A stretch of DNA of 64,000 nucleotides from Rhodospirillaceae bacterium (GCA_018649725.1 JABIHH010000017.1:40469-104468); one strand, 5' to 3'. Counted from the stretch's first letter, positions 15,300-61,205 are shown. Notes: a model not told the origin generated them from the sequence alone. Made by a program: numbers and translations.

Positions 15300-15313
15300 G
15301 TCTTATATAAGAG
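15300..15313. promoter_or_regulatory. Putative GntR/HutC operator (TCTTATATAAGA)
   Basis: Perfect 12-bp palindrome in the divergent cupin/GntR promoter. Confidence 0.75.
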
Positions 15314-15372
15314 TATAAAAAGGAAATATCGTCAAAATGACGAAACAGGGATTAGAGAAACGGAAATGAAAA

Positions 15373-16149
15373 ATGGCAAAAAAAGCTACAGTTTCAGCCG
15401 CAAATTTAAATAAGCCAGCCCCACAGAAAAACGCAAAGACCAAGCGGGGCCAAACGAAATATCAAAAAGTGGACAATATTATCCGCCAGCGCCTGATCGA
15501 TAACGTCTGGAAGCCGGGCGATGCGCTGCCGAGTGAGATGCAACTGGCGGCAGAGCTCGATGTCAGCCAGGGCACTGTCCGCAAGGCGCTTAATGATATG
15601 GTGACGGAGAATTTGCTGTTCCGCCGCCAAGGCCTCGGCACTTTTGTCTCCGAGCACACCGAACGCCGGGCGCTGTTCCTTTATTTTAGCATTGTCGGCA
15701 ATGACGGCTCTCGGCTGTTACCGGAAAGTAATATCCTGGCTTGCGAAGAGAAAATGCCGACAGAAGTTGAGGCTGAAAAATTGGAACTCAGCCAGGGTGA
15801 AATGATCGTACAGTTTCGCCGCATCCGCTTTTTCAATGAAGTACCGACGCTCGTTGAGACAATCTCTTTGCCGCTTGAACACTTCCCCGGCTTTGGTACC
15901 GATGTTGAGCCACCCAACAACCTGTTCCGCTTTTATCAGTCAGAGTATGGCGTCACGGTTGCTAAGGCCGAAGAGCACCTAAAAGCTGTAAGCGCCTCTG
16001 CAGAAGAAGCCGCCCTCCTCAACATTGAGGCCGGCGCGCCGATGCTGGAAATCGACCGCATCGCAAAAATGCTTGATGGCCGCCCAGTCGAATGGCGCGT
16101 CAGCCACTGCGACACCAGCAATTATCGCTATGTCACGGAACGTGGATAG
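15373..16149 (+). CDS. GntR family regulator, HutC subfamily (UTRA domain)
   Basis: LPSEMQLAAELDVSQGTVRKAL...RRQGLGTFV; C-terminal UTRA (LEIDR...RPVEWRVS). Confidence 0.92.
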   Translation: MAKKATVSAANLNKPAPQKNAKTKRGQTKYQKVDNIIRQRLIDNVWKPGDALPSEMQLAAELDVSQGTVRKALNDMVTENLLFRRQGLGTFVSEHTERRALFLYFSIVGNDGSRLLPESNILACEEKMPTEVEAEKLELSQGEMIVQFRRIRFFNEVPTLVETISLPLEHFPGFGTDVEPPNNLFRFYQSEYGVTVAKAEEHLKAVSASAEEAALLNIEAGAPMLEIDRIAKMLDGRPVEWRVSHCDTSNYRYVTERG

Positions 16150-16188
16150 ATTGTGTGACGAGTTAATTTCAACCCTTCATCCCAAGCC

Positions 16189-16274
16189 GTCATTCCGGCG
16201 AAAGCCGGAATCCAGAAAGCCGCCTTTCTATTTTACAAATGATAGACTGGATCCCGGATCAAGTCCGGGATGAC
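16189..16274. repeat. REP-like palindromic repeat pair, family A
   Basis: gtcattccggcgaaagccggaatccag ... ctggatcccggatcaagtccgggatgac. Confidence 0.85.
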
Positions 16275-16305
16275 GTTTAAGGGCTAAAGGCGAGGAGAAA
16301 ATTCT

Positions 16306-17223
16306 ATGACAAAAAAAATCGGCTATATCGGCCTCGGTGTCTTGGGCTCGGCGATGGTGCCAAATTTGATCGAGAGCGGCTTTGACGTCATTGGCTATGA
16401 TGTGCGCCCGGAAGTCCTAGAGGAACTCGGCAAGCTCGGTATGGAAGGTGCAAGCTCGCCAAAAGATGCGGCAGAGCGCGCTGATGTTGTTGTCACCTGC
16501 CTGCCTTCCATTGAGGTTTTGATGGATGTCTATGGCGGCGCAGACGGCATCGATAAGGCGGACAAAAAGGGCCAGATCATTATTGAGACCAGCACTTTTC
16601 CTGTCGACGAGAAGGAAAAAGCCAAGACGCTCATGGACGCGGCAGGCAAACGCATGCTCGACTGTCCGGTCAGTGGCAACCGCATCTTGGCAGTGAAAAA
16701 ACAACTCACAGCTTTTGGCAGTGGTGAAGAAGCGGCTTACAACGAGGTCGAAGATGTCATCCAGGGTTTCGCCAGCCGGACGTTTTATGTCGGCGAATTT
16801 GGCAGCGGTATGAAAATGAAATTCTGCGCCAATATCCTCAATCTCGTGCATAACTCTGTTGCCGCTGAAGTTATGGTGCTCGGTATGAAGTCCGGCCTTG
16901 ATCCTGAAATGATCCATAATGTGATCAGCGGGTCTGGCTCGAGCTCGTCGATGTTTGAGACCCGCGGGGCCATGATGGCCAATAACAATTACGATCATGA
17001 AGGCATGAATTTCTCGGTGCCGATCAAGGATTCCCGCTTTATCTCGGATCACGCCCACAAAATGCAAGTGCCGACACCGATCTACCATGTCGCATTGCAA
17101 TCTTATTATGCTGCCATCGCGCAAGGTCATTTCGACGAAGATGCAGCAGCCGTCTGCGCCGCGATGGAACGCGCCGCTAATTTTGAACGTCCAAAGGATG
17201 AGAAAAAAACCAATGAGTTCTAA
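16306..17223 (+). CDS. 3-hydroxyisobutyrate dehydrogenase-family oxidoreductase
   Basis: IGYIGLGVLG, LDCPVSG, GSGMKMK. Confidence 0.88.
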   Translation: MTKKIGYIGLGVLGSAMVPNLIESGFDVIGYDVRPEVLEELGKLGMEGASSPKDAAERADVVVTCLPSIEVLMDVYGGADGIDKADKKGQIIIETSTFPVDEKEKAKTLMDAAGKRMLDCPVSGNRILAVKKQLTAFGSGEEAAYNEVEDVIQGFASRTFYVGEFGSGMKMKFCANILNLVHNSVAAEVMVLGMKSGLDPEMIHNVISGSGSSSSMFETRGAMMANNNYDHEGMNFSVPIKDSRFISDHAHKMQVPTPIYHVALQSYYAAIAQGHFDEDAAAVCAAMERAANFERPKDEKKTNEF

Positions 17224-18172
17224 ACCAAAAAAGAAAGTAATAAAAAAGCCAGCAAAAGAATCCGTCTACAAAGTCGGTGTCATCGGTCTCGGCAATATGG
17301 GCCGAGGCATTGCTAAAAACCTGATCAAAGCCGGCAATGAAGTCTTTGTCTGGGATATCTCAGAAGAGGCCCGCAAGCCTTATGCTAGAAAGGCGACCAT
17401 CGCCGAGCCGCATGAAATGGCCGGAAAATGTCAGATGGTGATCTTTGTCGTTCCGGGCTCACCAGAAATCGATGCCATGCTCAAAGGCAAAAACAGCATG
17501 CTCGCCAAACCAAAACGCGGATTGGTTTTGTATGATTTTACAACATCTGATCCGGTCTACACCAAGAAGCTCGCCAAGCGGGCTGCTAAAAAAGGCGTCA
17601 CTTATATGGATGCCGGCATGACCGGCGGCGGCGCACAAGGGGCCGATGAGGGCACCATGACACTAATGATCGGCGGCGATACAAAAGTCTTCAAACGCAC
17701 CGCACCGATGCTGGCGCCGGTAGCCAAAAAGCTTATCCATCTCGGCGCAAGCGGAACCGGCCACACCATGAAGGTGGTCCATAATATGATCACCCATACC
17801 AACTTCTTTGCCCTCAGTGAGGCCGCTCATCTCGGTCGGCGCGCCGGCATCAAGCTGGAAGATTTGATTGAAGTGTTTAACAACGGCAACGCCCGCAGCT
17901 TCATCTCCGAGCGCCGCTTTCCAGATCACATTATCTCCGAAACCTGGGATGGCCGGTCCAGGGTCTACAATCTCAACAAAGATGTCGGCATGGCGATCGC
18001 ACTGGCTGACAAGTTGGGCGCGACTGTGAATATCGGCCGCGACACCTACGCCTATATCCAAGAAGCCGTCCGCCAAGGCCGCTCTGAAGAGGACTTCACC
18101 CGGCTCTATCCAGATTTAGAGAAGCTGGATAAGAAGAAAAAAGCTAAGAAGAAAACTAAGAAAAAAAAGTAA
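17213..18172 (+). CDS. 3-hydroxyisobutyrate dehydrogenase-family oxidoreductase with Lys-rich termini
   Basis: VGVIGLGNMG, MDAGMTGG, GTGHTMKVVHN; start at MSSKPK. Confidence 0.88.
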   Translation: MSSKPKKKVIKKPAKESVYKVGVIGLGNMGRGIAKNLIKAGNEVFVWDISEEARKPYARKATIAEPHEMAGKCQMVIFVVPGSPEIDAMLKGKNSMLAKPKRGLVLYDFTTSDPVYTKKLAKRAAKKGVTYMDAGMTGGGAQGADEGTMTLMIGGDTKVFKRTAPMLAPVAKKLIHLGASGTGHTMKVVHNMITHTNFFALSEAAHLGRRAGIKLEDLIEVFNNGNARSFISERRFPDHIISETWDGRSRVYNLNKDVGMAIALADKLGATVNIGRDTYAYIQEAVRQGRSEEDFTRLYPDLEKLDKKKKAKKKTKKKK

Positions 18173-18185
18173 GAATACCCACCTA

Positions 18186-18286: not shown

Positions 18287-19210
18287 TTAGCTCATCGCCA
18301 GATCGACAAGCTCGTCACCAATGATCTTGCGTTGTTCATCGATGATCGGTGTGACGGCATCGACAAAGGCTTGACGTTTCTCGTCACTCAGCTGGATGAT
18401 GTCATTCTCAGCCGGGTCGAATTTTTTCAAAAGCTCGACATCTTCTTCAATCGCCAAGGCGCGCTGGGTTCGCGTGGCCTCCAGCGCCGCGTCATCGACG
18501 GCTTGACGCACTTCGTCGGGCCAGCCTTCATACAAGCCACGGTTCACGTAAAGCCCACAGACACCCAGGATGTGTCCGGTGAGCGTGATATAGCGATGAT
18601 GTTTGTGGATGTCGAATTGATAGATATTGGTCAGCGGATTATCCTGGCCGTCGATGTCGCCGCTTTCCATCTCAGCAACGAATTGCTTGATGTTCATAAT
18701 CACCGGCTCGAAGCCGAGGCGACGGTAGATACGGCCTTGGAATTCACTGGGCAGCGTGCGGGTACGAATACCCTCGCAGTCTTTGGGTTCCCGGATCGCC
18801 CGCACGCGATTGGAAAAATGCCGATAACCGTTATCCCAGAAATGCAGAATCTTGAGATTAGGATGCGCTGCTTCAATCGCCATCTTGATGCGATCGCCCA
18901 ACTCGCCATCGAGCTTGGCATAAGCCTTTTCCCGGTCATTGAAGACAAAAGGTAAGTCCAGCACACTGACCATCGGGAGCTCGGACGAGAAATAATTGGT
19001 CGACATATAACAGAAGGTCAGTTCGCCGCTTTCGGTCAGGGTAATAAGGTCGCCTGTCTTGTGGCCAAAGACCGTAATGTCATTATCCAGAACATAGTCG
19101 ACATTGCCGCTCAAGCGCTCTTTCAGCCCATCTCCCAGCGCTGCGCCAGCTCGGGTGTGGATTGAAATCGGTGTTTGATAACCACCAAAGCGGAAAGATA
19201 AGTCAGACAT
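18287..19210 (-). CDS. TRAP DctP-family substrate-binding protein, no signal peptide
   Basis: LDLPFVF, WDNGYRHF, GIRTR, IDGQDNPL, YITLTGH. Confidence 0.85.
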   Translation of the reverse strand: MSDLSFRFGGYQTPISIHTRAGAALGDGLKERLSGNVDYVLDNDITVFGHKTGDLITLTESGELTFCYMSTNYFSSELPMVSVLDLPFVFNDREKAYAKLDGELGDRIKMAIEAAHPNLKILHFWDNGYRHFSNRVRAIREPKDCEGIRTRTLPSEFQGRIYRRLGFEPVIMNIKQFVAEMESGDIDGQDNPLTNIYQFDIHKHHRYITLTGHILGVCGLYVNRGLYEGWPDEVRQAVDDAALEATRTQRALAIEEDVELLKKFDPAENDIIQLSDEKRQAFVDAVTPIIDEQRKIIGDELVDLAMS

Positions 19211-19313: not shown

Positions 19314-20279
19314 TTATTTTTTCATCAAGCCTTGAACCATCGCTTTGTAAGCTTTGCTTTGTGCAGGACGTTGCTTTTCGTAAGCAGGACCTGTCTCATA
19401 ATCGGTGATTTCACCGATCGCTTTAATCAAGCGCTTGTAGGTTTTGTGACCTTGCAGTTTCGTCATTGCTGAACGAAGTTTTGCTAGACGGTCAGCCGGA
19501 ATGCCGCGTGGTGCCATAAGCACACGATGCATCAGGCCAATGTCTGAGGTGTAGCCAAGATCTTTAAAAGTAGGCACGCCTTTAAACGCTGTTTTCTGAC
19601 CAGCAGAAATAAGTACGCGGACTTTTTTACCTTGAGCTTTAATTGTTGATTTAAACTGGAAAGTAAAATCAGCTTCTTTAGCCAAGAAACCACGCAAAGA
19701 AGGTCCGCCGCCTTTATAAGGCACCATGACGATGTTCTTTACGATACCAGCTTCAGTGAAGAGTTGCAGCGCCGGAGCATGGGTTGCACCCCAGTTACCT
19801 GAGTGAGCAAACTTCAACTTGCCTGGGTTCTTTTTAGCATAAGCAACCAATTGGCCCCAAGTCTTGAACGGGCTATCAGCACGCACGATGACGGAGAAGC
19901 TACCGGAGTTCAGCTTACCAACCGTGACGAAATCTTTATCCGTGTTATACGGCAATTTCTTCACATGCTTTTGCAGCTGATCATAGTAGTTATGAGTGAA
20001 AATCAAGGTATAGCCGTCTGGCTTAGAACGTGCGGCAGCAGCCGTACCAACTTGACCAGATGCACCAGGCATCAATTTCACGATGATTGCGTTACCAAGA
20101 AATTCTGGAATGACACTGGTGAACACACGCGCATTACGATCGTGCGAACCACCAGCACCCAAAGGCAGAATCATGGTGATTGGTTTTTCTGGATACCCAG
20201 CCGCTTTAAGGGTGTCGATTGACATTCCCAAAGCAAGAACCGTCCCCAGAACGAGTTTTATAACATTGCGTATCCGCAT
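19314..20279 (-). CDS. tctC: Tripartite tricarboxylate transporter substrate-binding protein (TctC/Bug)
   Basis: YPEKPITMILPLGAGGSHD, KPDGYTL, VPYKGGGP, VPTFKDLG. Confidence 0.9.
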   Translation of the reverse strand: MRIRNVIKLVLGTVLALGMSIDTLKAAGYPEKPITMILPLGAGGSHDRNARVFTSVIPEFLGNAIIVKLMPGASGQVGTAAAARSKPDGYTLIFTHNYYDQLQKHVKKLPYNTDKDFVTVGKLNSGSFSVIVRADSPFKTWGQLVAYAKKNPGKLKFAHSGNWGATHAPALQLFTEAGIVKNIVMVPYKGGGPSLRGFLAKEADFTFQFKSTIKAQGKKVRVLISAGQKTAFKGVPTFKDLGYTSDIGLMHRVLMAPRGIPADRLAKLRSAMTKLQGHKTYKRLIKAIGEITDYETGPAYEKQRPAQSKAYKAMVQGLMKK

Positions 20280-20367
20280 TTTCTTTTCCTCTCTGTAGTA
20301 CATTTAAAAAATTTTCACTCTCTAACCTATCGGTTCAAAGAGCGCTTTAATTTCCCCTTAAAACAAC

Positions 20368-20380
20368 TCTTATATAAGAC
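20368..20380. promoter_or_regulatory. Putative GntR/HutC operator
   Basis: TCTTATATAAGAC upstream of tctC. Confidence 0.75.
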
Positions 20381-20483: not shown

Positions 20484-21989
20484 TTACTCCTCAGTACCAA
20501 ACTGTTTTCGAAGCCGTGTAGAGCGTCGCCACATCAAGAATGTTACGATCGGCGTGAGGGCAAAAATAACGCCGGTAATCGGTCTTTCAAACAGCATGTA
20601 GCTGAACAGATGACCGCTCGAGAGCGTTACACTTTGGCCGAAGGAGTATTCCAGCGTTGGCCCCAAAATAAAGCCCATCGCCATCGGTGTCACATCGAAG
20701 TGCAGCTTTTTAGCGATATAGCCAAAGGCACCAAAGAACACCAAGACGGCGAGGTCGAAAGGTTGCGCGCGGAACACCCACGAGCCGGCAAAGGCAAAAA
20801 CCAGTGTTAGCGGCAGCAGGAAGGATTTTCGGATCGTCACCACTTTGGCGAAGAACGGAATACAGACATAACCGATGCCGAGGAACAAAATATTGGCAAT
20901 CACCATCGCGATCAAAATCGCATACACCAACGCGCCTTGTTCTTCCATCAATTGCGGACCGGGTCGCATGCCTTGCGCGATGAAAGCACCAACCAAAATA
21001 ACTGTCAGATTGTCGCCTGGGATACCCAGTGTCAGCAGGGGCACCAAGGTTGGGCCGTTCACTGCATTATTGGCACATTCGGCAGCGGCTACACCCTCAA
21101 GCTCACCCTGGCCAAAAGTCTCCGGGTGGGTTGAGGCCGATTTCGCCGCCGCATAACCCATAAAGGCGGCCACAACTTGGCCAACACCTGGGATCATACC
21201 GATTGAGGTGCCAATCATCGTTGAGCGAACAAGTGTCCGACCAACGCCTTTAAATTCAGCCCAGGTCAAGCGCTCACCGCTCACTTTAAGGTCTTCGGCT
21301 TTGATCAACGAAGACGCTTTCTTTTCAATATTGGTGAAAATTTCCGGCAGAGCAAAGACGCCGATCAGCATTGGCAACAAAGGAATGCCAGCTTCGATCT
21401 GCGGAATACCGAGCGAGAAACGCGACAGCGCGCCAATCGGATCCTGGCCGATCATGCCAAAGAACAGGCCGACGACCAGCATCAACAAGCCTTTGACGAA
21501 GACGCCACTTGAGGTTGCTGAAATAACAATCAGCGCCAACAACAAAATCGCCGCCAGTTCTGGCGGGCCTAACAGTAGCGCCACGGCCGCAATAGGACCT
21601 ATCAGAGCAATTGTAAAAAGATCACTGGAAAGATCGCCGGCAACGGATGAGAACAGCGCCATCTCAAGGGCTTTGCGCGCTTGACCTTTTTTGGTCAACG
21701 CTGGCCCATCGAAGGTTGTTGCCACCGCCGCTCCGGTGCCGGGCATGGAAACCAAAATAGCTGGGATTGAGCCACCATAAATGCCGCCTTTATAGACGCC
21801 GATCAAGAAGGGAATGCCCAGCAGTGGATCCAGGAAGAATGAGATTGGCAACAGGATTGCCATCGCCATCAAGGTCGTAAAGCCGGGCAGCGCGCCGACA
21901 AACATACCTAAGAATAACCCGCCCGACATATAGATCATGGTGTCTAGACGAAACGCGAGGCCGACACCTTCAAGGAACACTTCAAACAT
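20484..21989 (-). CDS. tctA: TTT large membrane protein TctA
   Basis: GALPG, YGGSIPAIL, GVAAAECANNA, LTLGIPG. Confidence 0.93.
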   Translation of the reverse strand: MFEVFLEGVGLAFRLDTMIYMSGGLFLGMFVGALPGFTTLMAMAILLPISFFLDPLLGIPFLIGVYKGGIYGGSIPAILVSMPGTGAAVATTFDGPALTKKGQARKALEMALFSSVAGDLSSDLFTIALIGPIAAVALLLGPPELAAILLLALIVISATSSGVFVKGLLMLVVGLFFGMIGQDPIGALSRFSLGIPQIEAGIPLLPMLIGVFALPEIFTNIEKKASSLIKAEDLKVSGERLTWAEFKGVGRTLVRSTMIGTSIGMIPGVGQVVAAFMGYAAAKSASTHPETFGQGELEGVAAAECANNAVNGPTLVPLLTLGIPGDNLTVILVGAFIAQGMRPGPQLMEEQGALVYAILIAMVIANILFLGIGYVCIPFFAKVVTIRKSFLLPLTLVFAFAGSWVFRAQPFDLAVLVFFGAFGYIAKKLHFDVTPMAMGFILGPTLEYSFGQSVTLSSGHLFSYMLFERPITGVIFALTPIVTFLMWRRSTRLRKQFGTEE

Positions 21990-22030
21990 TTAGTTTCTAT
22001 GCTCCAAATTCTTATATAATCGGTCGATAA

Positions 22031-22552
22031 TCAAATAAGCGACCAATGGGTCAGCGGGTAAATATCGATTGGGAATGGCGGTAGTTCCACCAATAGCAGA
22101 CGCCGGAATGTGGCGAATACCACCACCGGCAAAGTGATGCTGATGAGAACGCCAACCAAGTAATTGCGATTGCCAAAGTAAGTCGACATGGCAAAAATCA
22201 TGATCGCACTGCCAAGCACAAAGCCAAGATTAACCATGAGCGGCACATAGATTGCCATCATCACTAACGTAACGGCCACGTTGACAATTGCCTCTTTATT
22301 GAGATTTTTCAGTTCATTGACCTGATCAATGGACCTACTTTTATAGAGGAACCAAACGCCCAAAATAACCATGCAAATAGCCGCAATCTGCGGGAAAAGC
22401 TCCGGCGGCAGATTGAACTGGCCAACGGATAGCTGAATAAGCGGTTTATCGATTTGGCTCGGTATCACGATATAGAGAAAGACACCGAGGGCGATAAATA
22501 GAATTGCCGCTACCGTATTGAAGTTAAATTTCTTTTCGACAATTTGATCCAT
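22031..22552 (-). CDS. tctB: TTT small membrane protein TctB
   Basis: About four TM helices, PELFP and LLVELP motifs, upstream of tctA. Confidence 0.85.
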   Translation of the reverse strand: MDQIVEKKFNFNTVAAILFIALGVFLYIVIPSQIDKPLIQLSVGQFNLPPELFPQIAAICMVILGVWFLYKSRSIDQVNELKNLNKEAIVNVAVTLVMMAIYVPLMVNLGFVLGSAIMIFAMSTYFGNRNYLVGVLISITLPVVVFATFRRLLLVELPPFPIDIYPLTHWSLI

Positions 22553-22585
22553 GATCTAGGTCCAATTTTGTTTCTCTCGCTTTGT

Positions 22586-23650
22586 TTAACTGGCGATCCG
22601 AATTGATGACATGTCTGTTGAATTCAACGGCAAGGTTACCGGCTCATTGCGCTCAACCGACAAATCAGCCGCCATATAGACTTCCATGACTTGGCGCGCT
22701 TGCTGCGGCGTCACCATAACCGGCTTGTCCATCGCAACAGCTTCCAAGAAGTGAACGCCTTCATTATGCATCGGTCCGGCGAAGACATGCTCAACCTGCT
22801 CACCCGGCATTGACGACATTGGCAAGCGAATACCATTTTCCATCGTGTTTAAAACCACATCTCTGTGAGTATCATCGATGGTCAGCATACCTTTGGTGCC
22901 GGAGAACTCGACCCAGGTACCGGAAAAATTGGGATGGCCGGGAGGGGCCGACCAGCACGCACCAACCGTAATAACCACACCATTATCCAGCGTCACCATG
23001 GTCCATTGCGCATCTTCAAGGCCCGTAACATCCTTCATCGCGCCATAGGCTGATTGCGAGTAGACCCGGACCGGCTTGGCCGGCTCCAAGCACCACAACA
23101 GAAAATCAAGATCGTGCGTTGCTTCCATTGCCGCCGGCGAAAGTTTAATACGTTGACCGATTTTAGTGCCGAGACCACGCGTAATATAGCGGCTAACGAG
23201 ACCAGCAACCGGCGCCCCGATGGTACCATCATTCAAACATTTCTTGAGATAGGCAAATTTGTGATTGAAACGCTGGGAATAACCAACGGTGAATTTGACC
23301 CCGTTGGCCTCAGCTAAATCAACCAACGTATCGGCTTCGCCCAAAGTCAGCGACAAGGGTTTTTCCATAAACACATGTTTACCGGTCTCAAGGCAATGCT
23401 TTGCCATTGGGAAATGAATGTCTTCCGGCGTCGCTGAAATGAAAAATGCATCAATGTCATCATTTTTCAGCATCTCGTGGTAATCGAGTGTCGCCGAAGC
23501 AGCATTTGTCAGTTCTTGAACTTCGGCTAGACGGTCAGGCCGGATCTCACAAATATGAAGATCTTTAACAAGGGGATTAGCCGCGCAAGTGTTCGCGCGA
23601 ATACCGCCGCACCAACCTGTTCCGATGATACCAACATTGATCTGCTTCAT
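22586..23650 (-). CDS. Gfo/Idh/MocA family oxidoreductase
   Basis: VGIIGTGWCG, MEKPL, GYSQRF; paralog of 11974-13104. Confidence 0.9.
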   Translation of the reverse strand: MKQINVGIIGTGWCGGIRANTCAANPLVKDLHICEIRPDRLAEVQELTNAASATLDYHEMLKNDDIDAFFISATPEDIHFPMAKHCLETGKHVFMEKPLSLTLGEADTLVDLAEANGVKFTVGYSQRFNHKFAYLKKCLNDGTIGAPVAGLVSRYITRGLGTKIGQRIKLSPAAMEATHDLDFLLWCLEPAKPVRVYSQSAYGAMKDVTGLEDAQWTMVTLDNGVVITVGACWSAPPGHPNFSGTWVEFSGTKGMLTIDDTHRDVVLNTMENGIRLPMSSMPGEQVEHVFAGPMHNEGVHFLEAVAMDKPVMVTPQQARQVMEVYMAADLSVERNEPVTLPLNSTDMSSIRIAS

Positions 23651-23743: not shown

Positions 23744-23795
23744 GTCTTATATAAGACCTAACTGTGCTGTCAAGAACTGAGTCTTATATAAGACT
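23744..23795. promoter_or_regulatory. Tandem putative GntR/HutC operators
   Basis: GTCTTATATAAGAC at 23744-23757 and AGTCTTATATAAGACT at 23780-23795. Confidence 0.8.
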
Positions 23796-25510: not shown

Positions 25511-25708
25511 TTATTTGTATCCATACTTAAAGTTTTTTAGCGCATTTCTAAAATTCTGCGCCAAGTTCGAAAGGTTGTACAAACCCTTCCCGTTAAATAC
25601 AAACAAAAGACGTAGAATGGAAATATCGCCTCAACGTCATCGGCCTTACAGAATTACAGAAAATTTACTGGAAAGACCCGACCTCGAATGCTATGCAGCC
25701 CTCCATAT

Positions 25709-25720
25709 TCTTATATAAGA
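25709..25720. promoter_or_regulatory. Putative GntR/HutC operator
   Basis: TCTTATATAAGA 53 bp upstream of the 2-hydroxyacid dehydrogenase. Confidence 0.75.
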
Positions 25721-25773
25721 GTACCATGTTGTTGTTCATTTAGGGCAACGTAGCTAAGGGGAAGAGAAAAATT

Positions 25774-26739
25774 ATGTCTAGCAATATTATCGCCGTCGCA
25801 GATTCGGTCTTTCCGTCTCTCGACCCAGCCAAGGAAGCGCTTTCAGGCGTTACTTCTGAAGAATTCCGTATGTCCGCTGATACCTCAGCCGACAGCATTT
25901 TAGCCGTTGCTGCTGATGCCGATGCGCTTCTGGTTACTTACAGCCAGATTAATGCTGAGGTGATCGCCGGTCTCAATAATTGTAAAGCCATTGGCCGCTT
26001 TGGCATTGGCACCGACAATATCGATATCGCCGCGGCGACTGAAAAAGGCATCAAGGTTTGCTATGCACCGGTCTACTGCCTGGATGAAGTTTCCGATCAC
26101 GCGATGGCTTTGCTGTTGTCTTGTGCGCGTAAAATTCCATTTGCCAATGCGCGTGCTGCTGAAGGCCGCTGGGAAATGCCGGCTGTTGCCCCAATTGGTC
26201 GCTTCCGCGGTAGAACACTGGGCCTTATCGGTCTCGGGAACATCCCACAGCAAATCGTTGGTAAAGCGCAAGCTTTCGGCATCAATGTGATCGCTTCCGA
26301 TCCTTATTGCCCGGATGATGTATTCTCCCGCCTCAATGTTGAAAAAGTTGAGCTTGATGATCTGCTGGGTCGTTCTGATTATGTCTCCGTTCATGCGCCG
26401 CTTACGCCAGAGACAGAAAACATGTTCAACATGGACGCCTTCAAGAAGATGAAGAACACCGCCTTCCTGATCAACACAGCACGGGGTCCATTGGTTGAGA
26501 TTAATGATTTAGCAAAAGCTTTGGATGCCGGCGAGATTGCTGGTGCCGGTCTTGATGTTTTACCTGTTGAGCCTCCTGAAGCCGACAATCCATTGTTGGG
26601 CCGTGACGACGTTGTCCTCACCCCCCATACCGGCTTCTACTCGGAGGACGCGCTGCTTGATTTGCAGACAACTGTGGCAACTGCCGTTGCGACCATCCTC
26701 GGCGGCGGCGAGCCGAAATATCCAGTGACGCCTAAATAA
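25774..26739 (+). CDS. D-isomer-specific 2-hydroxyacid dehydrogenase (CtBP-like)
   Basis: GIGTDNID, LGLIGLGNI, LINTARG, GLDV..EP, LTPH. Confidence 0.92.
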   Translation: MSSNIIAVADSVFPSLDPAKEALSGVTSEEFRMSADTSADSILAVAADADALLVTYSQINAEVIAGLNNCKAIGRFGIGTDNIDIAAATEKGIKVCYAPVYCLDEVSDHAMALLLSCARKIPFANARAAEGRWEMPAVAPIGRFRGRTLGLIGLGNIPQQIVGKAQAFGINVIASDPYCPDDVFSRLNVEKVELDDLLGRSDYVSVHAPLTPETENMFNMDAFKKMKNTAFLINTARGPLVEINDLAKALDAGEIAGAGLDVLPVEPPEADNPLLGRDDVVLTPHTGFYSEDALLDLQTTVATAVATILGGGEPKYPVTPK

Positions 26740-26755
26740 AGCTGGATAACCGACC

Positions 26756-27769
26756 ATGAAAGCCATGATGCTGACGGCACCGAAAGCGGTGTCGCCTGAG
26801 GACGTCGATATGCCCGAGCCGGGTCCGGATGAAACCCTCATCCGGGTCACCAAAACGGGCATTTGCGGCACCGATTTGAAAATATTTCAGGGCGGTATCC
26901 CGGTCGACTATCCCCGCATCATGGGACACGAATCGGTTGGTGAGGTTATCTCAGGCGGCAATCTCGCTCCCGGTACCCCGGTTATTGTCGACCCGGCTTA
27001 TTACTGTGGCTCATGTTATAACTGCCGAGACGGCCAGACGCATTTGTGTCCGAACGGTGGTCTCATTGGCCGGGATGTTGAGGGCGGCTTCGCAGAGTAC
27101 ATGGTCGCACCGTCCCGCAACGTGCACGCTTTGCCAAAAGACATGGACCCCGGCGTGGCCCCACTGATCCAGCCGATGACCACCTGTCTGCATGCCCAGC
27201 GCAAAGCAAATATTTTCCCCGGCGAAGCCGTGCTGGTTTATGGTCTGGGTGTCACCGGCCTGCTGCACGTTCAACTCGCCAAAGCGCATGGTGCTTATCC
27301 CGTGATTGGCGTGACGCGTTCCGAGTGGAAGCGCGATCTGGCCCGAGAACTTGGTGCCGACTTCACCTTCGCACCGGGCGAAAATCTTAAAGAACAAATC
27401 TTGGAAGTTACCGGCGATAAGGGCGGCGTCGATCTGGTCATCGAAAGCGTTGGCCAATTGCCGATCCTCGCCGAAGCCATTGAGTTGGTACGCCTGGGTG
27501 GCCGCATTCTACCGTTCGGCATCTACACGCAAACCCAAGGCGAGCTGCCGTTCTACAATCTCTATTTCAAAGAAATCCAGGTCGTCAACGCCCGGGTCGC
27601 CAAGCCAGAAGATTACCCCGCCTGCGTCGACTTTGTTGAGCGCGGCGTCGTCGACCTTAAGCCGCTGATCACCCATAACTTTAGCCTGGACGAGATCAAC
27701 AAAGCCCTCGACATGCTTGACGGCGGTGACAGCTCCTGCATTAAGATCATCCTGGACCACGCGGCTTAA
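26756..27769 (+). CDS. Zn-dependent alcohol dehydrogenase (MDR)
   Basis: GICGTD, GHE, CGSCYNC...C structural Zn site. Confidence 0.92.
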   Translation: MKAMMLTAPKAVSPEDVDMPEPGPDETLIRVTKTGICGTDLKIFQGGIPVDYPRIMGHESVGEVISGGNLAPGTPVIVDPAYYCGSCYNCRDGQTHLCPNGGLIGRDVEGGFAEYMVAPSRNVHALPKDMDPGVAPLIQPMTTCLHAQRKANIFPGEAVLVYGLGVTGLLHVQLAKAHGAYPVIGVTRSEWKRDLARELGADFTFAPGENLKEQILEVTGDKGGVDLVIESVGQLPILAEAIELVRLGGRILPFGIYTQTQGELPFYNLYFKEIQVVNARVAKPEDYPACVDFVERGVVDLKPLITHNFSLDEINKALDMLDGGDSSCIKIILDHAA

Positions 27770-47108: not shown

Positions 47109-47122
47109 GTCTTATATAAGAC
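47109..47122. promoter_or_regulatory. Putative GntR/HutC operator
   Basis: GTCTTATATAAGAC upstream of the DRE-TIM gene. Confidence 0.75.
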
Positions 47123-48453: not shown

Positions 48454-48470
48454 GAGACAGATTATTCAAA

Positions 48471-48504
48471 AAAAGCCCGGTTTCGAAAGAGACCGGGTTT
48501 TTTT
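48471..48504 (+). terminator. Intrinsic terminator
   Basis: cccggtttc..gagaccggg followed by T-tract. Confidence 0.75.
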
Positions 48505-48665
48505 GTGGAAAAAATCCAAAATTGGATTTGTCATCCGAAGTTAGTCGCTCTAAGCTGTTAGCAGCGACGAATTGCTCACGATAAATTGATAAAAGCTTGA
48601 ATGAAGCCAGTTTGTTAGTGCGCATTTAAGAAGTATTTTAGATTTAGATAATGGGGAGAATAGTT

Positions 48666-49124: not shown

Positions 49125-49185
49125 CCTGGGAGACAATTGTGCTAACACCATGCAATTCAATTTAAAAACAGATAAGGGGTAGAAC

Positions 49186-56172: not shown

Positions 56173-57117
56173 CTAGTCGTCGCTTTCTGGCATGTACTTG
56201 CCCGATAATTGCGGCGGAATGGGTGGATTAAAGCCCTTTTCCTGGCGCTCCAGCCGGGTTTCTCTAGACCAAGTTCGTTTGAGGTCATCCTCAATCCGGA
56301 TACGGAGGACATCCAGCCCTTCACACTCCAACTCAACCACATCGCCATCCTGGAACGCGTTCAAGCCGCGATGGTTGGTGCCGGTCGCCAAGACATCGCC
56401 GGGCTCCAGCGTATGAACCGAGCTCGCCCATTCGATACAGCGGGTAATATTGTGCGCCATGTCATCGCTGTTGAAATTTTGCTTAATATCACCGTTTACC
56501 GACAATTTGATCTGCAAATTCTGCGGATTAGAAATTTCGTCAGCGGTCACGATATAGGGTCCAATCGGCGCATAGGTTTCCCGGGATTTCATTTGAAAAA
56601 AGGAATTGCTGCCGGGCGGCTGAAGCCCACGGGCTGAGCCATCAATGAAATTAGTGTAGCCAAAGACATAATCCATCGCGTCGCTGGCACTGACATTTGT
56701 CGCTTGTTTGCCAATAACAACTGCAATCTCCGCCTCTCCTTCAAACACGGTCGCCGGAATATCTTGCAAGACCATCGCATCTTCATGCCCAATGATGCAG
56801 GACGGAGATTTATGAAAAGCGTTGATCGGGGCCGGTGCGTCGCGGGTGCCGTCCTCCATATAATTGACCGCCATGCAGTCGATATTTTGCGGCCTGGGCA
56901 AAGGTGGGCGAATTCGTATCGAAGAAAGTGGTATAGCCTCACCGTTGGAGACAGCCTTTTCAAGCTTCGGCCGTAAGGTGGCAAATTCCGCAATTAAGCC
57001 AGCCATGAGATCGAGATTGTCACGATGCGGCAAATCCTGCACAACATCGGTCACGTCAATTACTTCGGCACCCTCAACCACGCCGAGTTTATAATCATCA
57101 AAATAAGCTAATTTCAT
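56173..57117 (-). CDS. Fumarylacetoacetate hydrolase family protein
   Basis: VNY, EGEAEIAVVIG, GYTNFID, LEPGDVLATGT. Confidence 0.9.
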   Translation of the reverse strand: MKLAYFDDYKLGVVEGAEVIDVTDVVQDLPHRDNLDLMAGLIAEFATLRPKLEKAVSNGEAIPLSSIRIRPPLPRPQNIDCMAVNYMEDGTRDAPAPINAFHKSPSCIIGHEDAMVLQDIPATVFEGEAEIAVVIGKQATNVSASDAMDYVFGYTNFIDGSARGLQPPGSNSFFQMKSRETYAPIGPYIVTADEISNPQNLQIKLSVNGDIKQNFNSDDMAHNITRCIEWASSVHTLEPGDVLATGTNHRGLNAFQDGDVVELECEGLDVLRIRIEDDLKRTWSRETRLERQEKGFNPPIPPQLSGKYMPESDD

Positions 57118-57222
57118 AAAGTCTCTCCCGTTTTATCTTATTAAGGAGAGATTATGCGGAAGTTTCAATTCAAAATATCAACTAGGGCATGGCGTATTCA
57201 GATGTGTCGGGGAATTTGGCTT

Positions 57223-58536
57223 TTAAGTTCTCTGATCGACAAAGCGCGGCGCTTTAACACTGGCCTCAAATTCTTGAGCCAAGGTGCCGGTAGCCAGTTG
57301 AACGATAACTGGCCGAACTTCAAAAACGCCGCGGATTTTCTCGGCTAAATCATCAATGATGCTTTTAGCCTCAGCTGATTGGGCAATCTCAACACTGACG
57401 ACCAGATCGTCCAAGCCATCCGTCGCGACAAACTCAACTTTGAAATCATTGATCTCCGGCACACGAAAGATGAAATCCTCAAATTCAGAGTGATTGATGT
57501 TGATCCCTCTGATTTTAGAAAAGCCGACCGTCCGGTGGGCGTGTTTCATGACCGGGAATATTGAGAACGGCCCGTCAAGAGATGTCTCATTGTTGATCCG
57601 CACAATATCGCCGGAACTCCATCTGAGAAACGGTGTTGAGGTATTGCAAAAGAGCGGCGTGATGACCATCAAGCCCTCTTCGCCTTCTGGTACTGTAAGT
57701 CCAGTTTCTTCATCAACCACCTCAAACAAGGCCTGATCAGTCCAGATATGAAAGCCCTCATGAACTTTGCTGTCCGCCCCTAAAATGCCAATCTCAGTCA
57801 TGCCGAAGAAGTCGTTGACCTCCGCCCCCCAGGCACGTTCGAGCTTGTCGCGCTTGGCATCTGACAGCGCCTCAGCACCAACGATTACTTTGCGGACATT
57901 TCCGCTGGCCAGATCAATGCCCAACTCTTCCGCCAGATTGGCAAGATGGAGACCATAGCTCGGCATCCCCATCCAAATCGTCGGTTGGAGATCGTCGATG
58001 AGTTCGAGTTGAACCTTAGACGGCGTATTGGTACCCGAACCTGCCCACAGCACGCCAATGCCTGTCTGATTGGCGGTCCGAGACCACAACTGGCCTGCCG
58101 GGTGAACACCATAGGGAAAAGACTGATGGCAGATATCATCCTCTTTCAGCCCGCTCACCGTCCAGCAGCGACAAAGCTGAATATAGGTGTAATACATGTC
58201 GGTATAGGTGCGGGGATAATAGAGCGGCACGCCTGTGGCGCCCCCGGAGCGCCAATATTCGGCAATATCTTTTTGCTCGGCAATGCAAAAGAGCTCGCGG
58301 AAATTCTCAACACCCAGATCGCGCAACGTCTCTTTGTCAATGATCGGGATTTTTGCCCATTCTTCGGGGTCATCGAGATTCTCAGGATCGATGTGATCAA
58401 GCTTGCCTTGATAGAACTTGGCTTTCTGGGCTTGGGCAAAAGCTATTTTTTTACGCTCTGATTGAATGCGCAGGATGTCTTCCTTCGAAGACGGCAGTTC
58501 CAGATCTAGCTTTTCCCCAATTTTTTTCCCAGGCAT
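57223..58536 (-). CDS. Phenylacetate-CoA ligase (PaaK)-like AMP-binding protein
   Basis: SGGATG, GMPSY, VGAE, FGMTE, PFLRWSSGD, KIRGINI. Confidence 0.8.
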   Translation of the reverse strand: MPGKKIGEKLDLELPSSKEDILRIQSERKKIAFAQAQKAKFYQGKLDHIDPENLDDPEEWAKIPIIDKETLRDLGVENFRELFCIAEQKDIAEYWRSGGATGVPLYYPRTYTDMYYTYIQLCRCWTVSGLKEDDICHQSFPYGVHPAGQLWSRTANQTGIGVLWAGSGTNTPSKVQLELIDDLQPTIWMGMPSYGLHLANLAEELGIDLASGNVRKVIVGAEALSDAKRDKLERAWGAEVNDFFGMTEIGILGADSKVHEGFHIWTDQALFEVVDEETGLTVPEGEEGLMVITPLFCNTSTPFLRWSSGDIVRINNETSLDGPFSIFPVMKHAHRTVGFSKIRGININHSEFEDFIFRVPEINDFKVEFVATDGLDDLVVSVEIAQSAEAKSIIDDLAEKIRGVFEVRPVIVQLATGTLAQEFEASVKAPRFVDQRT

Positions 58537-59649
58537 TTAGATGGAGCCCCAAACGTCCTGGGCAACCTCAACCACCAACTCCAATTTACGCTTGGTATCA
58601 TCTTCCGTCACAACCTGGCCACCGCCGCCGCCGGACGAAAATCCGCATTGTGGAGAAATCGCAAGCTGCTCAAGAGGTGCAAATTTCGACGCCTCATCGA
58701 TCCGGCGCTTCAAGCCATCCTTATCTTCAAGCTCCGGCGTTTTGGTGCTAATCAGGCCCAGCACAGCGGTCTTGCCAGCCGGCAAATGACGCAGCGGCTC
58801 AAAGCCACCAGAGCGCTCGTTATCATATTCCATGAAAAAGGCGTCGATTTTAAGCTCATTAAAGATCTTTTCAGCGATCGGGTCATACCCCCCTTCCGCC
58901 ATCCAGAGACCTTTGAGATTACCTCTGCACATATGCATGCCGGCAAACATGTTATCTGGACGCCCACCGACTGCACTATTGATTGCTTTGACGTAGGTGT
59001 CGGTAAGTTCGTCCGGATCCTCGCCCCGCGCCCGAATGGTCTCACGCGCCTCAGTGTCGCAATTACACGGCAGTGCCGTATCATCCAATTGAATATAGGT
59101 GCAGCCGGCCGCGGCTAGTTCCGCGACCTCGTCGCTATAGGCTTTGGTCAAATCTGCAAAGTATTCTTCATCAGAAGAATACACATCCGGGTTATAGCTT
59201 TCATGGCCTAAGAAAAAATGCATCACCGGCGGCGAGGCCATGGTGACTTTCGGCTGACCCGAGGGATTTAGCGAACTGACATATTTAAAATCATCCGTCA
59301 CAATATTATGCTTTCGGCTGAGCTTGCCTTCCGCATAAGGTGACGGCGGCATCAACACGTCGCCCTCTTCACCTTTAAAAGTCAGCGTACCCCCATCTTT
59401 GACACCCATGCCCTCAAGCGCATCACTGACGCCGCCCGACCAGACCCTGCGGCGAAACTCACCGTCGGTCACCGACGGCATGCCGATGCTGTCTTGAAAA
59501 GCCACGATATCGGCAATGCACTCATCTTTCATCGCCTCAAACGCCGCGTCATCCAAATCACCGGCTTTGTTGGCACGCGCCGCATTTAAAAGTTTATCGG
59601 GGCGAATAAAACTACCGACATGTTCGGCGCGATATGGAGGTTTAGTCAT
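58537..59649 (-). CDS. Cobalamin-independent methionine synthase II family protein (MetE C-terminal-like)
   Basis: RAEHVGSFIRP, TDGEFRR, HMCRGN, MEYD, SPQCGF Zn ligands. Confidence 0.85.
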   Translation of the reverse strand: MTKPPYRAEHVGSFIRPDKLLNAARANKAGDLDDAAFEAMKDECIADIVAFQDSIGMPSVTDGEFRRRVWSGGVSDALEGMGVKDGGTLTFKGEEGDVLMPPSPYAEGKLSRKHNIVTDDFKYVSSLNPSGQPKVTMASPPVMHFFLGHESYNPDVYSSDEEYFADLTKAYSDEVAELAAAGCTYIQLDDTALPCNCDTEARETIRARGEDPDELTDTYVKAINSAVGGRPDNMFAGMHMCRGNLKGLWMAEGGYDPIAEKIFNELKIDAFFMEYDNERSGGFEPLRHLPAGKTAVLGLISTKTPELEDKDGLKRRIDEASKFAPLEQLAISPQCGFSSGGGGGQVVTEDDTKRKLELVVEVAQDVWGSI

Positions 59650-59740
59650 TGAGGTCGTCCTTCCTGAGAATGATTTTAAATTTGTTTGGGAGCCTAACGA
59701 ATTAGGGAAGAAGGAACAAGAATTAGTCCTTTCTATAAAC

Positions 59741-59777
59741 AAAAAAAACCGCCGCAGATTTCTCTGCAGCGGCTTTT
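59741..59777 (-). terminator. Intrinsic terminator after M24 gene
   Basis: A-tract followed by ccgccgcag..ctgcagcgg. Confidence 0.65.
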
Positions 59778-59801
59778 GAAAACGAGTTCTGAAAACAGAT
59801 C

Positions 59802-61130
59802 TTAGTGATCTTCGCCAGAAATGCTTGAATGGTGGAATTCGCCGACGCGGTAGTCGCCGACAGCTTCTTCCATATGTTCCATTTTGGTAAAGATGACAGG
59901 GCCGTCTTTGCCAACAAGTACGTTCTCTTCGAGACGACAAGTTTGCGGCAACCCTGGGTGACCAGCAAAAGTCTCAATGGCGAAGTACATGTTTTCTTTG
60001 ATCTCAGCAGGATACTTCAGTGAGTAAGCCCGAGACATCCACATGCCCTCATACAAGGTAATGCCGATGGAGTGAGCAAACTGCTGCAACGTAACCGTAC
60101 CGTATTTGTCATCGTCATATTCTGGGAATTTGGAAACAACGTCAGCAGAGGTATTACCCGGCTTCAGATTTTCCAGACCAGCATAGAGCGAGTCATAGGT
60201 TTCACGATAAAGATCGATTTCCTGCTGGGTCATCTTCGCGGCACATTTAAGCGTACGCACAAAGTCGATGTAATAACCACCAGGTCCGACAGCGTTAATA
60301 TCGATGATGATCAGATCACCCTGCTGGATGATTTTATCCGTTGCCCAACGACGATAAGGCGACGTGTTACCACCAGAAGCAACGATGATGTCATAAATGA
60401 TCTCACAATCGCGATCGAGCATGAATTTATGAACTTCAGCTTCAATTTGACGCTCTGTAACACCAGGCTTCAACCATTCGTTTTTGATGTGCCACATAGC
60501 AGCATCACCAATAGAAGAAGCTTGCTTGAGAAGCTCTATCTCATCGCGGGTTTTAACCGTACGTGCGCGGGAGAATGCAGGCCAGCCGTTAACAACGTTT
60601 ATGCCGGCTTTCTCGAACGCATGAAGCGCAGGCATATCGAAGTTATCAACACCGATTTTTTCTTTCTCAACGCCGTTCTCTTTGAGAACGTCAAGGATAG
60701 AAGCAACCATTTTATCAGCCATTTCGCCAACAGCGCCTTCAGCCCACTGCCACGTCATGGCAGGACGGATGCGATCTTTCATCCAAGGTAGATCGATGAT
60801 CGCACACTGCAGATCGGAACCAGCGGTTTCGAACAATACAGGCTCAGCATCGCGGCAGAGAACTGCATAACGAATGTTGATGTTGTATTTCCAGTTGCCC
60901 TGGTAAGAACCAGTGATGTAGCGAATATTCGCTCCAGCAAATACAACCAATGCCCCCAAATCATCATTGGCCATTTCGGCGCGTGCACGCTCTAAGCGTT
61001 CGTAGCGTAGGCGTTCGTGATCTACACGAAGCTGCCAGTCCGCACCCGTTGTTGAGTAAAGACGGCGTGGGTTAGTGTGATGTTCCTCTTGTAGGAACGT
61101 AGTGTCCATTTCGTAACCGGTGTACCCCAT
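59802..61130 (-). CDS. M24 family metallopeptidase-fold protein
   Basis: Creatinase-like N-domain (NIRYITG); metal ligands D, D (IIDI...YYIDFVRT), H (AHSIG), E (FAIET), E (RLEE). Confidence 0.85.
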   Translation of the reverse strand: MGYTGYEMDTTFLQEEHHTNPRRLYSTTGADWQLRVDHERLRYERLERARAEMANDDLGALVVFAGANIRYITGSYQGNWKYNINIRYAVLCRDAEPVLFETAGSDLQCAIIDLPWMKDRIRPAMTWQWAEGAVGEMADKMVASILDVLKENGVEKEKIGVDNFDMPALHAFEKAGINVVNGWPAFSRARTVKTRDEIELLKQASSIGDAAMWHIKNEWLKPGVTERQIEAEVHKFMLDRDCEIIYDIIVASGGNTSPYRRWATDKIIQQGDLIIIDINAVGPGGYYIDFVRTLKCAAKMTQQEIDLYRETYDSLYAGLENLKPGNTSADVVSKFPEYDDDKYGTVTLQQFAHSIGITLYEGMWMSRAYSLKYPAEIKENMYFAIETFAGHPGLPQTCRLEENVLVGKDGPVIFTKMEHMEEAVGDYRVGEFHHSSISGEDH

Positions 61131-61191
61131 AGGTAACTCCTCTTTAGGCAGAAAATTTATCTGTATAATTTTTTCGTTTCGACTTTATCGA

Positions 61192-61205
61192 GTCTTATAG
61201 AAGAC
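61192..61205. promoter_or_regulatory. Putative GntR/HutC operator (one mismatch)
   Basis: GTCTTATAGAAGAC upstream of the M24 gene. Confidence 0.65.

Follow-up and report, generated by a model that had tools for sequence, protein, structure and literature searches.

Related regulators and the locus under study

The typical operator of HutC-subfamily regulators of the GntR family, GTMTAKAC, holds its GT and AC 4 nt apart, and the exceptions listed in the text of PMC4494728 include SdhR, with the motif TCTTATGTCTTATATAAGACATAAGA, a comparative-genomics prediction credited there to Suvorova et al. 2012 (Suvorova, Korostelev & Gelfand 2015, PMC4494728). The supplements of that paper hold no SdhR, SuyR or motif entry. 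A second described setting is the sulfolactate cluster of suyAB, slcHFG, slcC and comC with the regulator suyR; as quoted in passages of 10.1101/197269 and 10.1101/2023.08.01.551581, the suyAB-slcHFG-slcC-comC cluster of Chromohalobacter salexigens is attributed to Denger & Cook 2010. Here, we analyse a stretch of 64,000 nucleotides (hereafter the window) from Rhodospirillaceae bacterium (GCA_018649725.1), which spans positions 40469-104468 of contig C4 in an assembly of 3,690,263 bp, 89 contigs and 87.8% completeness. The window carries dispersed copies of a 14-bp palindrome, GTCTTATATAAGAC, and a gene for a HutC-subfamily GntR regulator at 15373-16149. The palindrome is very probably the operator of this regulator, which would belong to a clade that includes SdhR and shares one DNA-reading helix and would control a regulon of about ten promoters.

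The window regulator resembles SdhR in its domain architecture, in the presence of a site upstream of its own gene and in its operator core. GTCTTATATAAGAC is exactly the central 14 bases of the SdhR motif as printed in the text of PMC4494728 and, as in that exception and unlike the canonical HutC operator, it places 10 nt between GT and AC. A first-pass annotation of the window had proposed a match to the core of the betaproteobacterial SdhR motif; this proposal was correct, since the motif in the text of PMC4494728 and the regulators of mdh/sdhCDAB/gltA loci carry the same palindrome. Across a phylum-wide sample of 301 genomes, 21 others held a homologue of the regulator (32-48% identity), and 20 of their loci were fetched; an SdhA-type gene stands beside the regulator in nine of these 20. 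The regulator lies between mdh and sdhC-sdhD-sdhA-sdhB-gltA in loci L050 and L058, and it is accompanied by sdhA-sdhB-gltA in L054 and by gltA in L048, all above the NCBIfam cut-offs. The full extended 26-bp motif is visible in several sdh-linked loci, and the regulators of the mdh <> gntR-sdhCDAB-gltA loci have the same helix, VSQGTVRKA, as the window regulator.

The window regulator also differs from SdhR. It is only 32-39% identical to the sdh-linked regulators, and the outer TCTTAT and ATAAGA repeats of the 26-bp motif are missing at the sites of this genome, where isolated ATAAG(A) boxes follow only the sites at 47110 and 61193. Its neighbours are cupin-Ldh_2 and HIBADH genes instead of sdh, mdh or gltA, and the targets here are transporters and dehydrogenases of an uncharacterised pathway. 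No motif copy with up to two mismatches was found within about 4.7 kb of the true sdhA of this genome (C20:50688-52451).

The closest solved relatives in a PDB sequence search were DasR of Streptomyces (94.9 bits) and NagR/YvoA of Bacillus subtilis (76.6 bits). They share the winged helix-turn-helix and UTRA fold with the window regulator and bind a palindromic operator as a dimer. Repression of the DasR/NagR type is relieved by an effector, and the DasR regulon is likewise dispersed over several operons. Unlike the window regulator, DasR and NagR/YvoA have operators of another sequence and geometry, and their effectors and pathways concern amino sugars.

Copies and anatomy of the palindrome

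The 12-mer palindrome TCTTATATAAGA occurs in exactly six perfect copies in the window, at 15301, 20368, 23745, 23782, 25709 and 47110, all of which the first-pass annotation had placed correctly; 100 dinucleotide-preserving shuffles of the window yielded a mean of 0.01 copies and a maximum of one. The genome-wide scan which that annotation had proposed gave seven perfect copies in 3.69 Mb, against about 0.22 expected from base composition, and the seventh lies at C21:24072. With only seven copies genome-wide and six of them in the window, the motif is not equally frequent throughout the genome; equal frequency was what the annotation had named as fatal to its reading. A mismatch search of the window added TCTTATAGAAGA at 61193, one mismatch from the 12-mer and likewise already reported.

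Alignment of the perfect and one-mismatch copies with their flanks showed that the conserved unit is the 14-bp palindrome GTCTTATATAAGAC, since the flanks outside it carry only about 0-0.3 bits of information across 11 sites. The 14-mer is present genome-wide in four perfect and six one-mismatch copies. A genome scan with a position-weight matrix (PWM), seeded with the same 11 sites that it ranked top, returned 53 matches of at least 10 bits. These top 11 (at least 19.5 bits) are all intergenic in a genome that is about 90% coding by rough open reading frame (ORF) calls, and they lie 46-146 bp upstream of the start codon of the first gene of an operon, while only 12 of the other 42 matches (at most 15.3 bits) are intergenic. 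For the window, ORFs, Pfam domains and oriented sequences bore out that the perfect copies and the one at 61193 are intergenic and precede the genes to which they had been assigned. The predicted operators of the window and the regulator gene are as follows.

15300..15313, operator GTCTTATATAAGAG, in the divergent region between cupin/Ldh_2 and gntR, at a distance of 81 bp from the start of the cupin gene and 60 bp from that of gntR
15373..16149, plus strand, HutC-subfamily GntR regulator with GntR winged helix-turn-helix and UTRA domains and the SdhR-type DNA-reading helix VSQGTVRKA
20367..20380, operator CTCTTATATAAGAC, lying downstream of tctA, 64 bp before tctC
23744..23757, proximal operator GTCTTATATAAGAC before Gfo1-tctB-tctA, overlapping a TTGACA-16-TATAAG promoter-like pair
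23781..23794, distal operator GTCTTATATAAGAC, adjoining the -35-like hexamer on its upstream side, with a spacing of 37 bp to the proximal operator
25708..25721, operator TTCTTATATAAGAG, 53 bp before the D-2-hydroxyacid dehydrogenase gene and, at 19.5 bits, the lowest-scoring of the 11 sites
47109..47122, operator GTCTTATATAAGAC, 102 bp before the HMGL-like gene
61192..61205, operator GTCTTATAGAAGAC, with one mismatch, 62 bp before the M24 gene

Two further copies were found by the mismatch search. The partial copy TCTTATATAATC at 22010..22021, between tctB and tctA, is present as the first-pass annotation had stated, with two mismatches, but it is not conserved, scoring below 10 bits and having no counterpart in the 27 orthologous loci described below. 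The palindromic copy TCTTTTAAAAGA at 46182..46193, between the UPF0261 and short-chain dehydrogenase/reductase (SDR) genes, also has two mismatches and was absent from the earlier list; it is doubtful as a site, with 12.3 bits and no counterpart in L064 or L067. Given their low scores and the lack of counterparts in related loci, neither copy is counted as a site.

The regulator and its association with the palindrome

The regulator, a protein of 258 aa, consists of an N-terminal GntR winged helix-turn-helix domain (PF00392, E 1.6e-20, residues 29-92) and a C-terminal UTRA effector domain of the chorismate-lyase fold (PF07702, E 1e-31, residues 117-252), and its best NCBIfam matches are of HutC/PhnF type, all below the cut-off. 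The genome holds only two UTRA genes; the second, on contig C73, has no motif match in the PWM scan and a recognition helix that reads VSRITAKRA. VSQGTVRKA is common to all 13 motif-bearing regulators that were aligned, and the helix of three homologues without the motif or with a variant motif reads VA(I/V)GTVRKA.

Presence of the palindrome follows presence of the regulator gene. Among 31 genomes of the family, this genome included, every one of the 22 that have a regulator orthologue holds at least two perfect 12-mers. None is found in six of the nine without the regulator, including the 96%-complete G165, which belongs to the same genus, and the complete genome G023, and the three exceptions, which have the motif and no regulator, are fragmentary (67% complete, 66% complete and 590 contigs). 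At the level of the order (151 genomes), 28 genomes carry the 14-mer with at most one mismatch, 30 carry a homologue at E <=1e-40 and 20 carry both. For the non-family genomes that carry both, the motif lies at most 300 bp from the regulator homologue (41-50% identical) in nine of 11, and in most of them this copy is the sole one in the genome. Seven loci were fetched from other families of the order, and in every one a perfect 12-mer closely precedes the regulator gene. The association extends to the phylum-wide loci, in 13 of which the 200 bp or so upstream of the regulator contain a copy with no more than one mismatch; the rest comprise two with the motif on the flank, two with the variant palindrome GTCATATATATGA, one with sites 4 kb away and two with none. 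That this regulator clade reads the palindrome is well supported by a pattern of occurrence which would otherwise be hard to explain. The proposal of the first-pass annotation that the motif marks a dispersed regulon tied to the GntR at 15373 thus gains from three sides: the co-occurrence, the conservation at orthologous promoters, and the palindrome before distant homologues.

In L056 and L057 (genomes G230 and G454), regulator homologues of 35-36% identity have the helix VAVGTVRKA, and the different palindrome GTCATATATATGA occupies the same upstream position. The joint change of helix and palindrome may represent a natural specificity switch within the clade.

Conservation of the sites in orthologous loci

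The genes of the window that are associated with the operators, and those in between, are as follows.

13733..14791, minus strand, Ldh_2-family 2-hydroxyacid dehydrogenase (Pfam, NCBIfam)
14809..15219, minus strand, Cupin_2 protein, first gene of the divergent operon (Pfam; synteny in 26 loci)
16306..17223, plus strand, beta-hydroxyacid dehydrogenase (HIBADH-like) 1, co-directional with gntR (Pfam, NCBIfam, synteny)
17087..18172, plus strand, beta-hydroxyacid dehydrogenase (HIBADH-like) 2, ORF as listed (Pfam, NCBIfam, synteny); its domain begins at residue 62, so that the true start is probably near 17270
18287..19210, minus strand, orphan DctP-type binding protein of tripartite ATP-independent periplasmic (TRAP) transporters, downstream of tctC
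19257-19288, terminator-like hairpin directly after tctC, with a 14-bp stem, 7 G-C pairs and a T-run
19314..20303, minus strand, tctC, solute-binding protein of a tripartite tricarboxylate transporter (TTT)
20484..23650, minus strand, operon of Gfo1 (Gfo/Idh/MocA oxidoreductase, 22586-23650), tctB (22031-22552) and tctA (20484-21989)
25774..27769, plus strand, D-2-hydroxyacid dehydrogenase (2HADH, 25774-26739) and Zn-dependent alcohol dehydrogenase (ZnADH, 26756-27769)
47224..49611, plus strand, HMGL-like protein (isopropylmalate/homocitrate-synthase-like DRE-TIM, 47224-48453) and two cupins (48651-49124 and 49186-49611)
59802-61130, minus strand, M24 creatinase/DddP-like hydrolase, which heads the co-directional genes 56173..61130
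58537-59940, minus strand, MetE-like Meth_synt_2 protein, ORF as called, true start probably further downstream
57223-58536, minus strand, PaaK-like ligase
56173-57117, minus strand, FAA-hydrolase-family protein

Gene spacing suggests that the genes following M24 belong to its operon. The hairpin after tctC suggests that tctC is a separately terminated and probably highly expressed unit. Since the hairpin stands between tctC and the DctP gene, the latter is probably not co-transcribed, and its membership of the regulon is uncertain.

A total of 27 orthologous loci were compared, all from metagenome-assembled genomes of marine Rhodospirillaceae/Rhodospirillales with a GC content of 40-62% and regulators 64-90% identical to that of the window. 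They keep the synteny Gfo0 ... Ldh_2-cupin <> gntR-HIBADH-HIBADH-(DctP)-tctC, tctA-tctB-Gfo1, 2HADH-ZnADH. At least one perfect 12-mer is present in 23 of the 27, and the loci without one are L010 and L015, both truncated, L021 and L022. When the 300 bp upstream of each orthologue were examined for copies with no more than one mismatch, a site was seen before Gfo1 in 19 of 19 loci and before tctC in 16 of 18. A site precedes tctB in seven of 17, which are the loci where tctB heads its own operon; the corresponding counts are 7/16 for 2HADH and 6/20 for Gfo0. No site precedes the internal genes HIBADH1 (0/23), HIBADH2 (0/26), tctA (0/17), Ldh_2 (0/25) and ZnADH (0/5). The gene order is rearranged to Gfo1, tctC, tctA-tctB in L023-L030, and each new promoter there has a perfect copy of its own. 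Double sites before Gfo1, as in the window, also occur in L005, L006 and L008.

The first-pass annotation had invoked autoregulation through the palindrome, and this holds in part. A site precedes gntR in the window and in near relatives, but the gntR/cupin intergenic region has one in only 6/26 orthologous loci (9/26 at up to two mismatches), and in the family's more distant genera decay has left a half-site, or no site at all, in front of gntR. Autoregulation is therefore likely in this genome and its nearest relatives, as judged from the placement of the sites.

Sites outside the window and extent of the regulon

The regulon would comprise about ten promoters. Six or seven, counting that of the gntR-HIBADH-HIBADH operon, lie in the window; the four elsewhere belong to an M24 paralogue, a second TTT transporter and two operons for TRAP transporters. 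The site at C21:10926 precedes a TRAP operon that also encodes two DctP proteins, a cupin, an acyl-CoA dehydrogenase (ACAD)-like oxygenase component and an FAD aromatic-ring hydroxylase, and the site at C21:24072 precedes the second tctC-tctB-tctA operon. The site at C87:44951 has a flavin reductase gene on one side and, on the other, a third TRAP operon that includes HbpS-like and TauE genes. The site on the 3.9-kb contig C31, with the operator variant GTCTTCTATAAGAC, precedes a second M24/MetE-like pair; the operator variant of 61192 is also found before this paralogous M24 gene and before dctQ on C21. Over its whole length, C31 matches window positions 57986-61839 (the Gfo2-M24-MetE-like-PaaK-like segment) at 79.5% identity. 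This identity rules out that C31 is the same DNA as the window, so that it is either a paralogous duplication or a contig from a binned relative.

The operons beyond the core are not accidents of this assembly, as their sites recur in other genera. The HMGL-cupin site recurs before the HMGL orthologue in G135 and G087. The site between the TRAP operon and the flavin reductase gene recurs in G135 and G101, that of the second TTT in G135 and G114, and that of the C21 TRAP operon in G135; the arrangement of Gfo2, site and M24-like gene recurs in G087. The predicted regulon hence includes four uptake systems, two TTT and two TRAP. The first-pass annotation had assigned the regulator to one pathway for one TTT-imported carboxylate, which is too narrow, since no fewer than four further promoters lie outside the window and the predicted regulon also takes in aromatic-type oxygenases, a second TTT and two TRAP systems.

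Proposed mode of regulation and points against it

By analogy with DasR and NagR/YvoA, we infer that a regulator dimer sits on the palindrome. Where the palindrome lies over or just downstream of a promoter, transcription would be blocked, and a small molecule bound to the UTRA domain would release the dimer and lift the block. The site positions fit repression in a suggestive way. In a manual reading, the Gfo1 promoter has a TTGACA-16-TATAAG pair; the proximal site covers the -10, and the distal one adjoins the -35. At the HMGL promoter, a promoter scan found TTGACA-17-TATGGT at 47061-47089, and the site lies about 20 nt downstream. At the M24 gene and its paralogue, a TTGATT-17-TATGAA pair read manually ends 3-4 nt before the site.

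Several points weigh against the proposed operator and its mode of action. The geometry of promoter occlusion is clear at two promoters only, and a generic promoter scan of 15150-25800 gave no excess of sigma-70-like sites (nine against 11.8 expected), so that the repression geometry is no more than suggestive. The PWM was built from its 11 top sites, which makes their rank circular and leaves only the intergenic placement as an independent observation. The low conservation of the gntR site means that autoregulation is not general and that, within the family, the link between regulator and site depends on clustering and co-occurrence. Eight genomes of the order contain a single motif copy and no regulator homologue, about the level of a reversed-pattern control. 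Related genomes are not independent samples, and the counts are given with no P-values attached. A maximum-likelihood tree of 17 regulators did not resolve the deep branches, so that we make no claim as to whether the sdh-linked or the SuyAB-linked clade is the sister of the window regulator. The case as a whole is comparative.

Function of the regulon and alternative explanations

The conserved core encodes almost exclusively NAD(P)-dependent dehydrogenases (two or three Gfo-type, Ldh_2, D-2-hydroxyacid, two HIBADH-type and Zn-ADH) and cupins, with no kinase and no dehydratase, which suggests that a polyhydroxy- or hydroxy-oxo-carboxylate is oxidised or epimerised. The pair of Ldh_2 and D-2-hydroxyacid dehydrogenase would possibly invert a 2-hydroxy centre, as SlcC and ComC do. 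Overall, the regulon looks like one for the uptake and oxidation of one or several organic anions of the hydroxy-carboxylate type. PDB sequence searches with TctC, DctP, Ldh_2, the SuyB-like protein and the regulator returned family-level relatives only and no clue to a ligand.

The peripheral operons, with their aromatic-type hydroxylases, PaaK-like ligase, FAA-hydrolase and M24 hydrolase, misfit one simple pathway, for which reason we keep as a serious, if clearly less probable, alternative that the operator and regulator are as proposed and that the regulon is a mid-level programme of organic-acid uptake and oxidation switched by a central metabolite, in the manner of SdhR. The four uptake systems together with the orphan DctP would suit such a programme, as would the unrelated chemistry of the predicted enzymes, which range from sugar-acid-type dehydrogenases, an isopropylmalate synthase-like lyase/synthase, the M24 hydrolase and the PaaK-like ligase to the FAD aromatic-ring hydroxylase and an ACAD-like oxygenase with flavin reductase. 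It is also consistent with the retention of sites before the extra operons in other genera and with the same-operator relatives in mdh/sdhCDAB/gltA loci. However, HutC regulators are usually local, the sdhA region of this genome is devoid of the motif over the range searched above, the conserved core forms one compact cluster around the regulator, and the effector domains diverge widely among clade members (32-50% identity overall).

The homologues in other families of the order bring in a further candidate substrate. In four of the seven loci, the regulator is divergent from a split GD_AH-type dehydratase-like pair of about 100 and about 390 aa, which is a single 433-aa protein in L032. The pair is accompanied by 2-Hacid_dh and Ldh_2 genes in L032, L033 and L038 and by TctC/TctA in L033 and L038 only. 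As NCBIfam has no SuyAB model, the label "SuyAB-like" for this pair is a matter of architecture, and it is by their gene context that we infer the name "SuyR" for these homologues. The regulators in question, from other Alphaproteobacteria and 41-50% identical to that of the window, carry the same operator and face SuyAB-like, 2-Hacid_dh and Ldh_2 genes, as in the suyR-bearing cluster so far as it is described in the passages cited for it. Two additional proteins are encoded in L039, a YeiH-type exporter and one whose match to sulfoquinovose isomerase is sub-threshold.

It is unlikely, on this evidence, that the regulon encodes a route, independent of SuyAB, by which a C3 organosulfonate such as sulfolactate or 2,3-dihydroxypropane-1-sulfonate (DHPS) is used, with a cupin or an ACAD-like two-component oxygenase breaking the C-S bond. 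Such a route would be inherited from the clusters of the suyAB-TTT-SlcC-ComC type that homologous regulators would control in other Alphaproteobacteria. The idea draws on the SuyAB-like pair in four of seven loci, on TctC/TctA in two and dehydrogenases in three of those four, and on the match of their gene set to the sulfolactate cluster as outlined in parts of 10.1101/197269 and 10.1101/2023.08.01.551581. The window keeps three families of that cluster around the regulator, namely TTT, 2-Hacid_dh and Ldh_2, and the best NCBIfam match of its Ldh_2 protein is L-sulfolactate dehydrogenase, at 280.6 bits far under the model cut-off of 500. A TauE sulfite-exporter gene and the flavin reductase gene flank the C87 site, but no tblastn match to TauE was obtained beside orthologous TRAP operons; a DsrC/TusE-like gene follows Ldh_2, but DsrC was not found in the 27 orthologous loci. 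A SuyB-type gene (PF20629) has no match in the genome (87.8% complete), nor in the regulon-carrying relatives G087 (100% complete) and G048 (98%), and the Xsc model TIGR03457 gave only sub-threshold matches to thiamine pyrophosphate enzymes in this genome. In addition, identity between Ldh_2, 2HADH, TctC and TctA of the window and their counterparts in the SuyAB-type loci is only 28-40%, and beyond the families of the sulfolactate cluster the window has a cupin and dehydrogenases of the HIBADH (two), Gfo (two or three) and Zn-ADH types. Given this identity and the lack of PF20629 and Xsc matches, the window is not filed under the sulfolactate system.

A wider form of the idea, which we regard as a long shot, holds that in this family of uncultured marine Rhodospirillales a regulator of the SdhR/"SuyR" clade, its operator unchanged, extended its regulon to about ten operons. 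Jointly, the operons would constitute an undescribed route, independent of SuyAB and Xsc, for an abundant algal organosulfonate or a related hydroxy-acid, with uptake by TTT and TRAP transporters, stereo-inversion by Ldh_2 and D-2-hydroxyacid dehydrogenase, and C-S or C-C cleavage by a cupin or a two-component flavin oxygenase.

That the palindrome is bound by another protein or is a non-regulatory repeat (a repetitive extragenic palindromic (REP)-like element, a terminator or a mobile-element end) is very improbable, for although it is AT-rich and palindromic like many structural repeats, only 14 bp are conserved and the flanks are devoid of information, the sites lie upstream and not downstream of genes, presence and absence follow the regulator gene, the single copy in distant genomes precedes a regulator homologue, and changes in the recognition helix coincide with loss or change of the motif.

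Significance of the operator clade

The motif and this type of regulator have been described before; new are this regulon, its size and the service of the same operator to unrelated gene sets across two proteobacterial classes. For a family of uncultured marine Rhodospirillales, in which metabolism is otherwise inferred gene by gene, the motif maps genes that would act jointly. The map ties four TTT/TRAP uptake systems to a set of about twenty enzymes, and ligand screens could assign the whole pathway at once. To a specialist, such a regulon is unsurprising, and its use lies in giving access to a pathway yet to be characterised. With protein identity at about 32%, the 14-bp operator of one HutC clade is still the same in Beta- and Alphaproteobacteria, and the genes beside the operator change completely, from the TCA (tricarboxylic acid) cycle to sulfolactate-type clusters and to this regulon, a case for regulon rewiring with no change of DNA specificity. 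It is also a caution, as a shared motif does not justify the transfer of regulon content.

Other features of the window

A DsrC/TusE-family sulfur-relay protein is encoded at 13170-13586, directly downstream of Ldh_2, and a two-domain rhodanese at 33524-34378. A MauG/MbnH-like di-haem peroxidase (396 aa; 155 bits with the MbnH-family model, below its cut-off) adjoins a YtkA-like protein (172 aa) at 23794-25510, and the two may be an MbnH/MbnP-like copper-protein pair. The pair lies between two operator sites and is transcribed away from both. A HupE/UreJ membrane protein is encoded at 28688-29485.

The PEP_hydrolase-like gene (31443-32291) and the UPF0261 gene (44895-46232) are 12 kb apart in the window and adjacent in G087 (L064 5003-7087), beside an HMGL/SDR operator site; the pair may belong to the same regulon neighbourhood.

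A cluster for a molybdoenzyme of the CO-dehydrogenase/xanthine-dehydrogenase type occupies 35775-39586, with the large subunit in the overlapping ORFs 36797-38191 (hammerhead and MoCoBD_1) and 35775-36818 (MoCoBD_2). The homologous large subunit on C21 is one 796-aa protein, and the split in the window could be a frameshift, an assembly error or genuine. A GntR/FCD regulator (39634-40332) lies upstream of a three-gene nitrile-hydratase-type cluster (40610-41906). Its beta subunit is divided between separate genes, NHase_beta_N (101 aa) and NHase_beta_C (105 aa), after which come the alpha subunit (226 aa) and a LysE exporter. We take this three-subunit layout to be that of thiocyanate hydrolase and toyocamycin nitrile hydratase.

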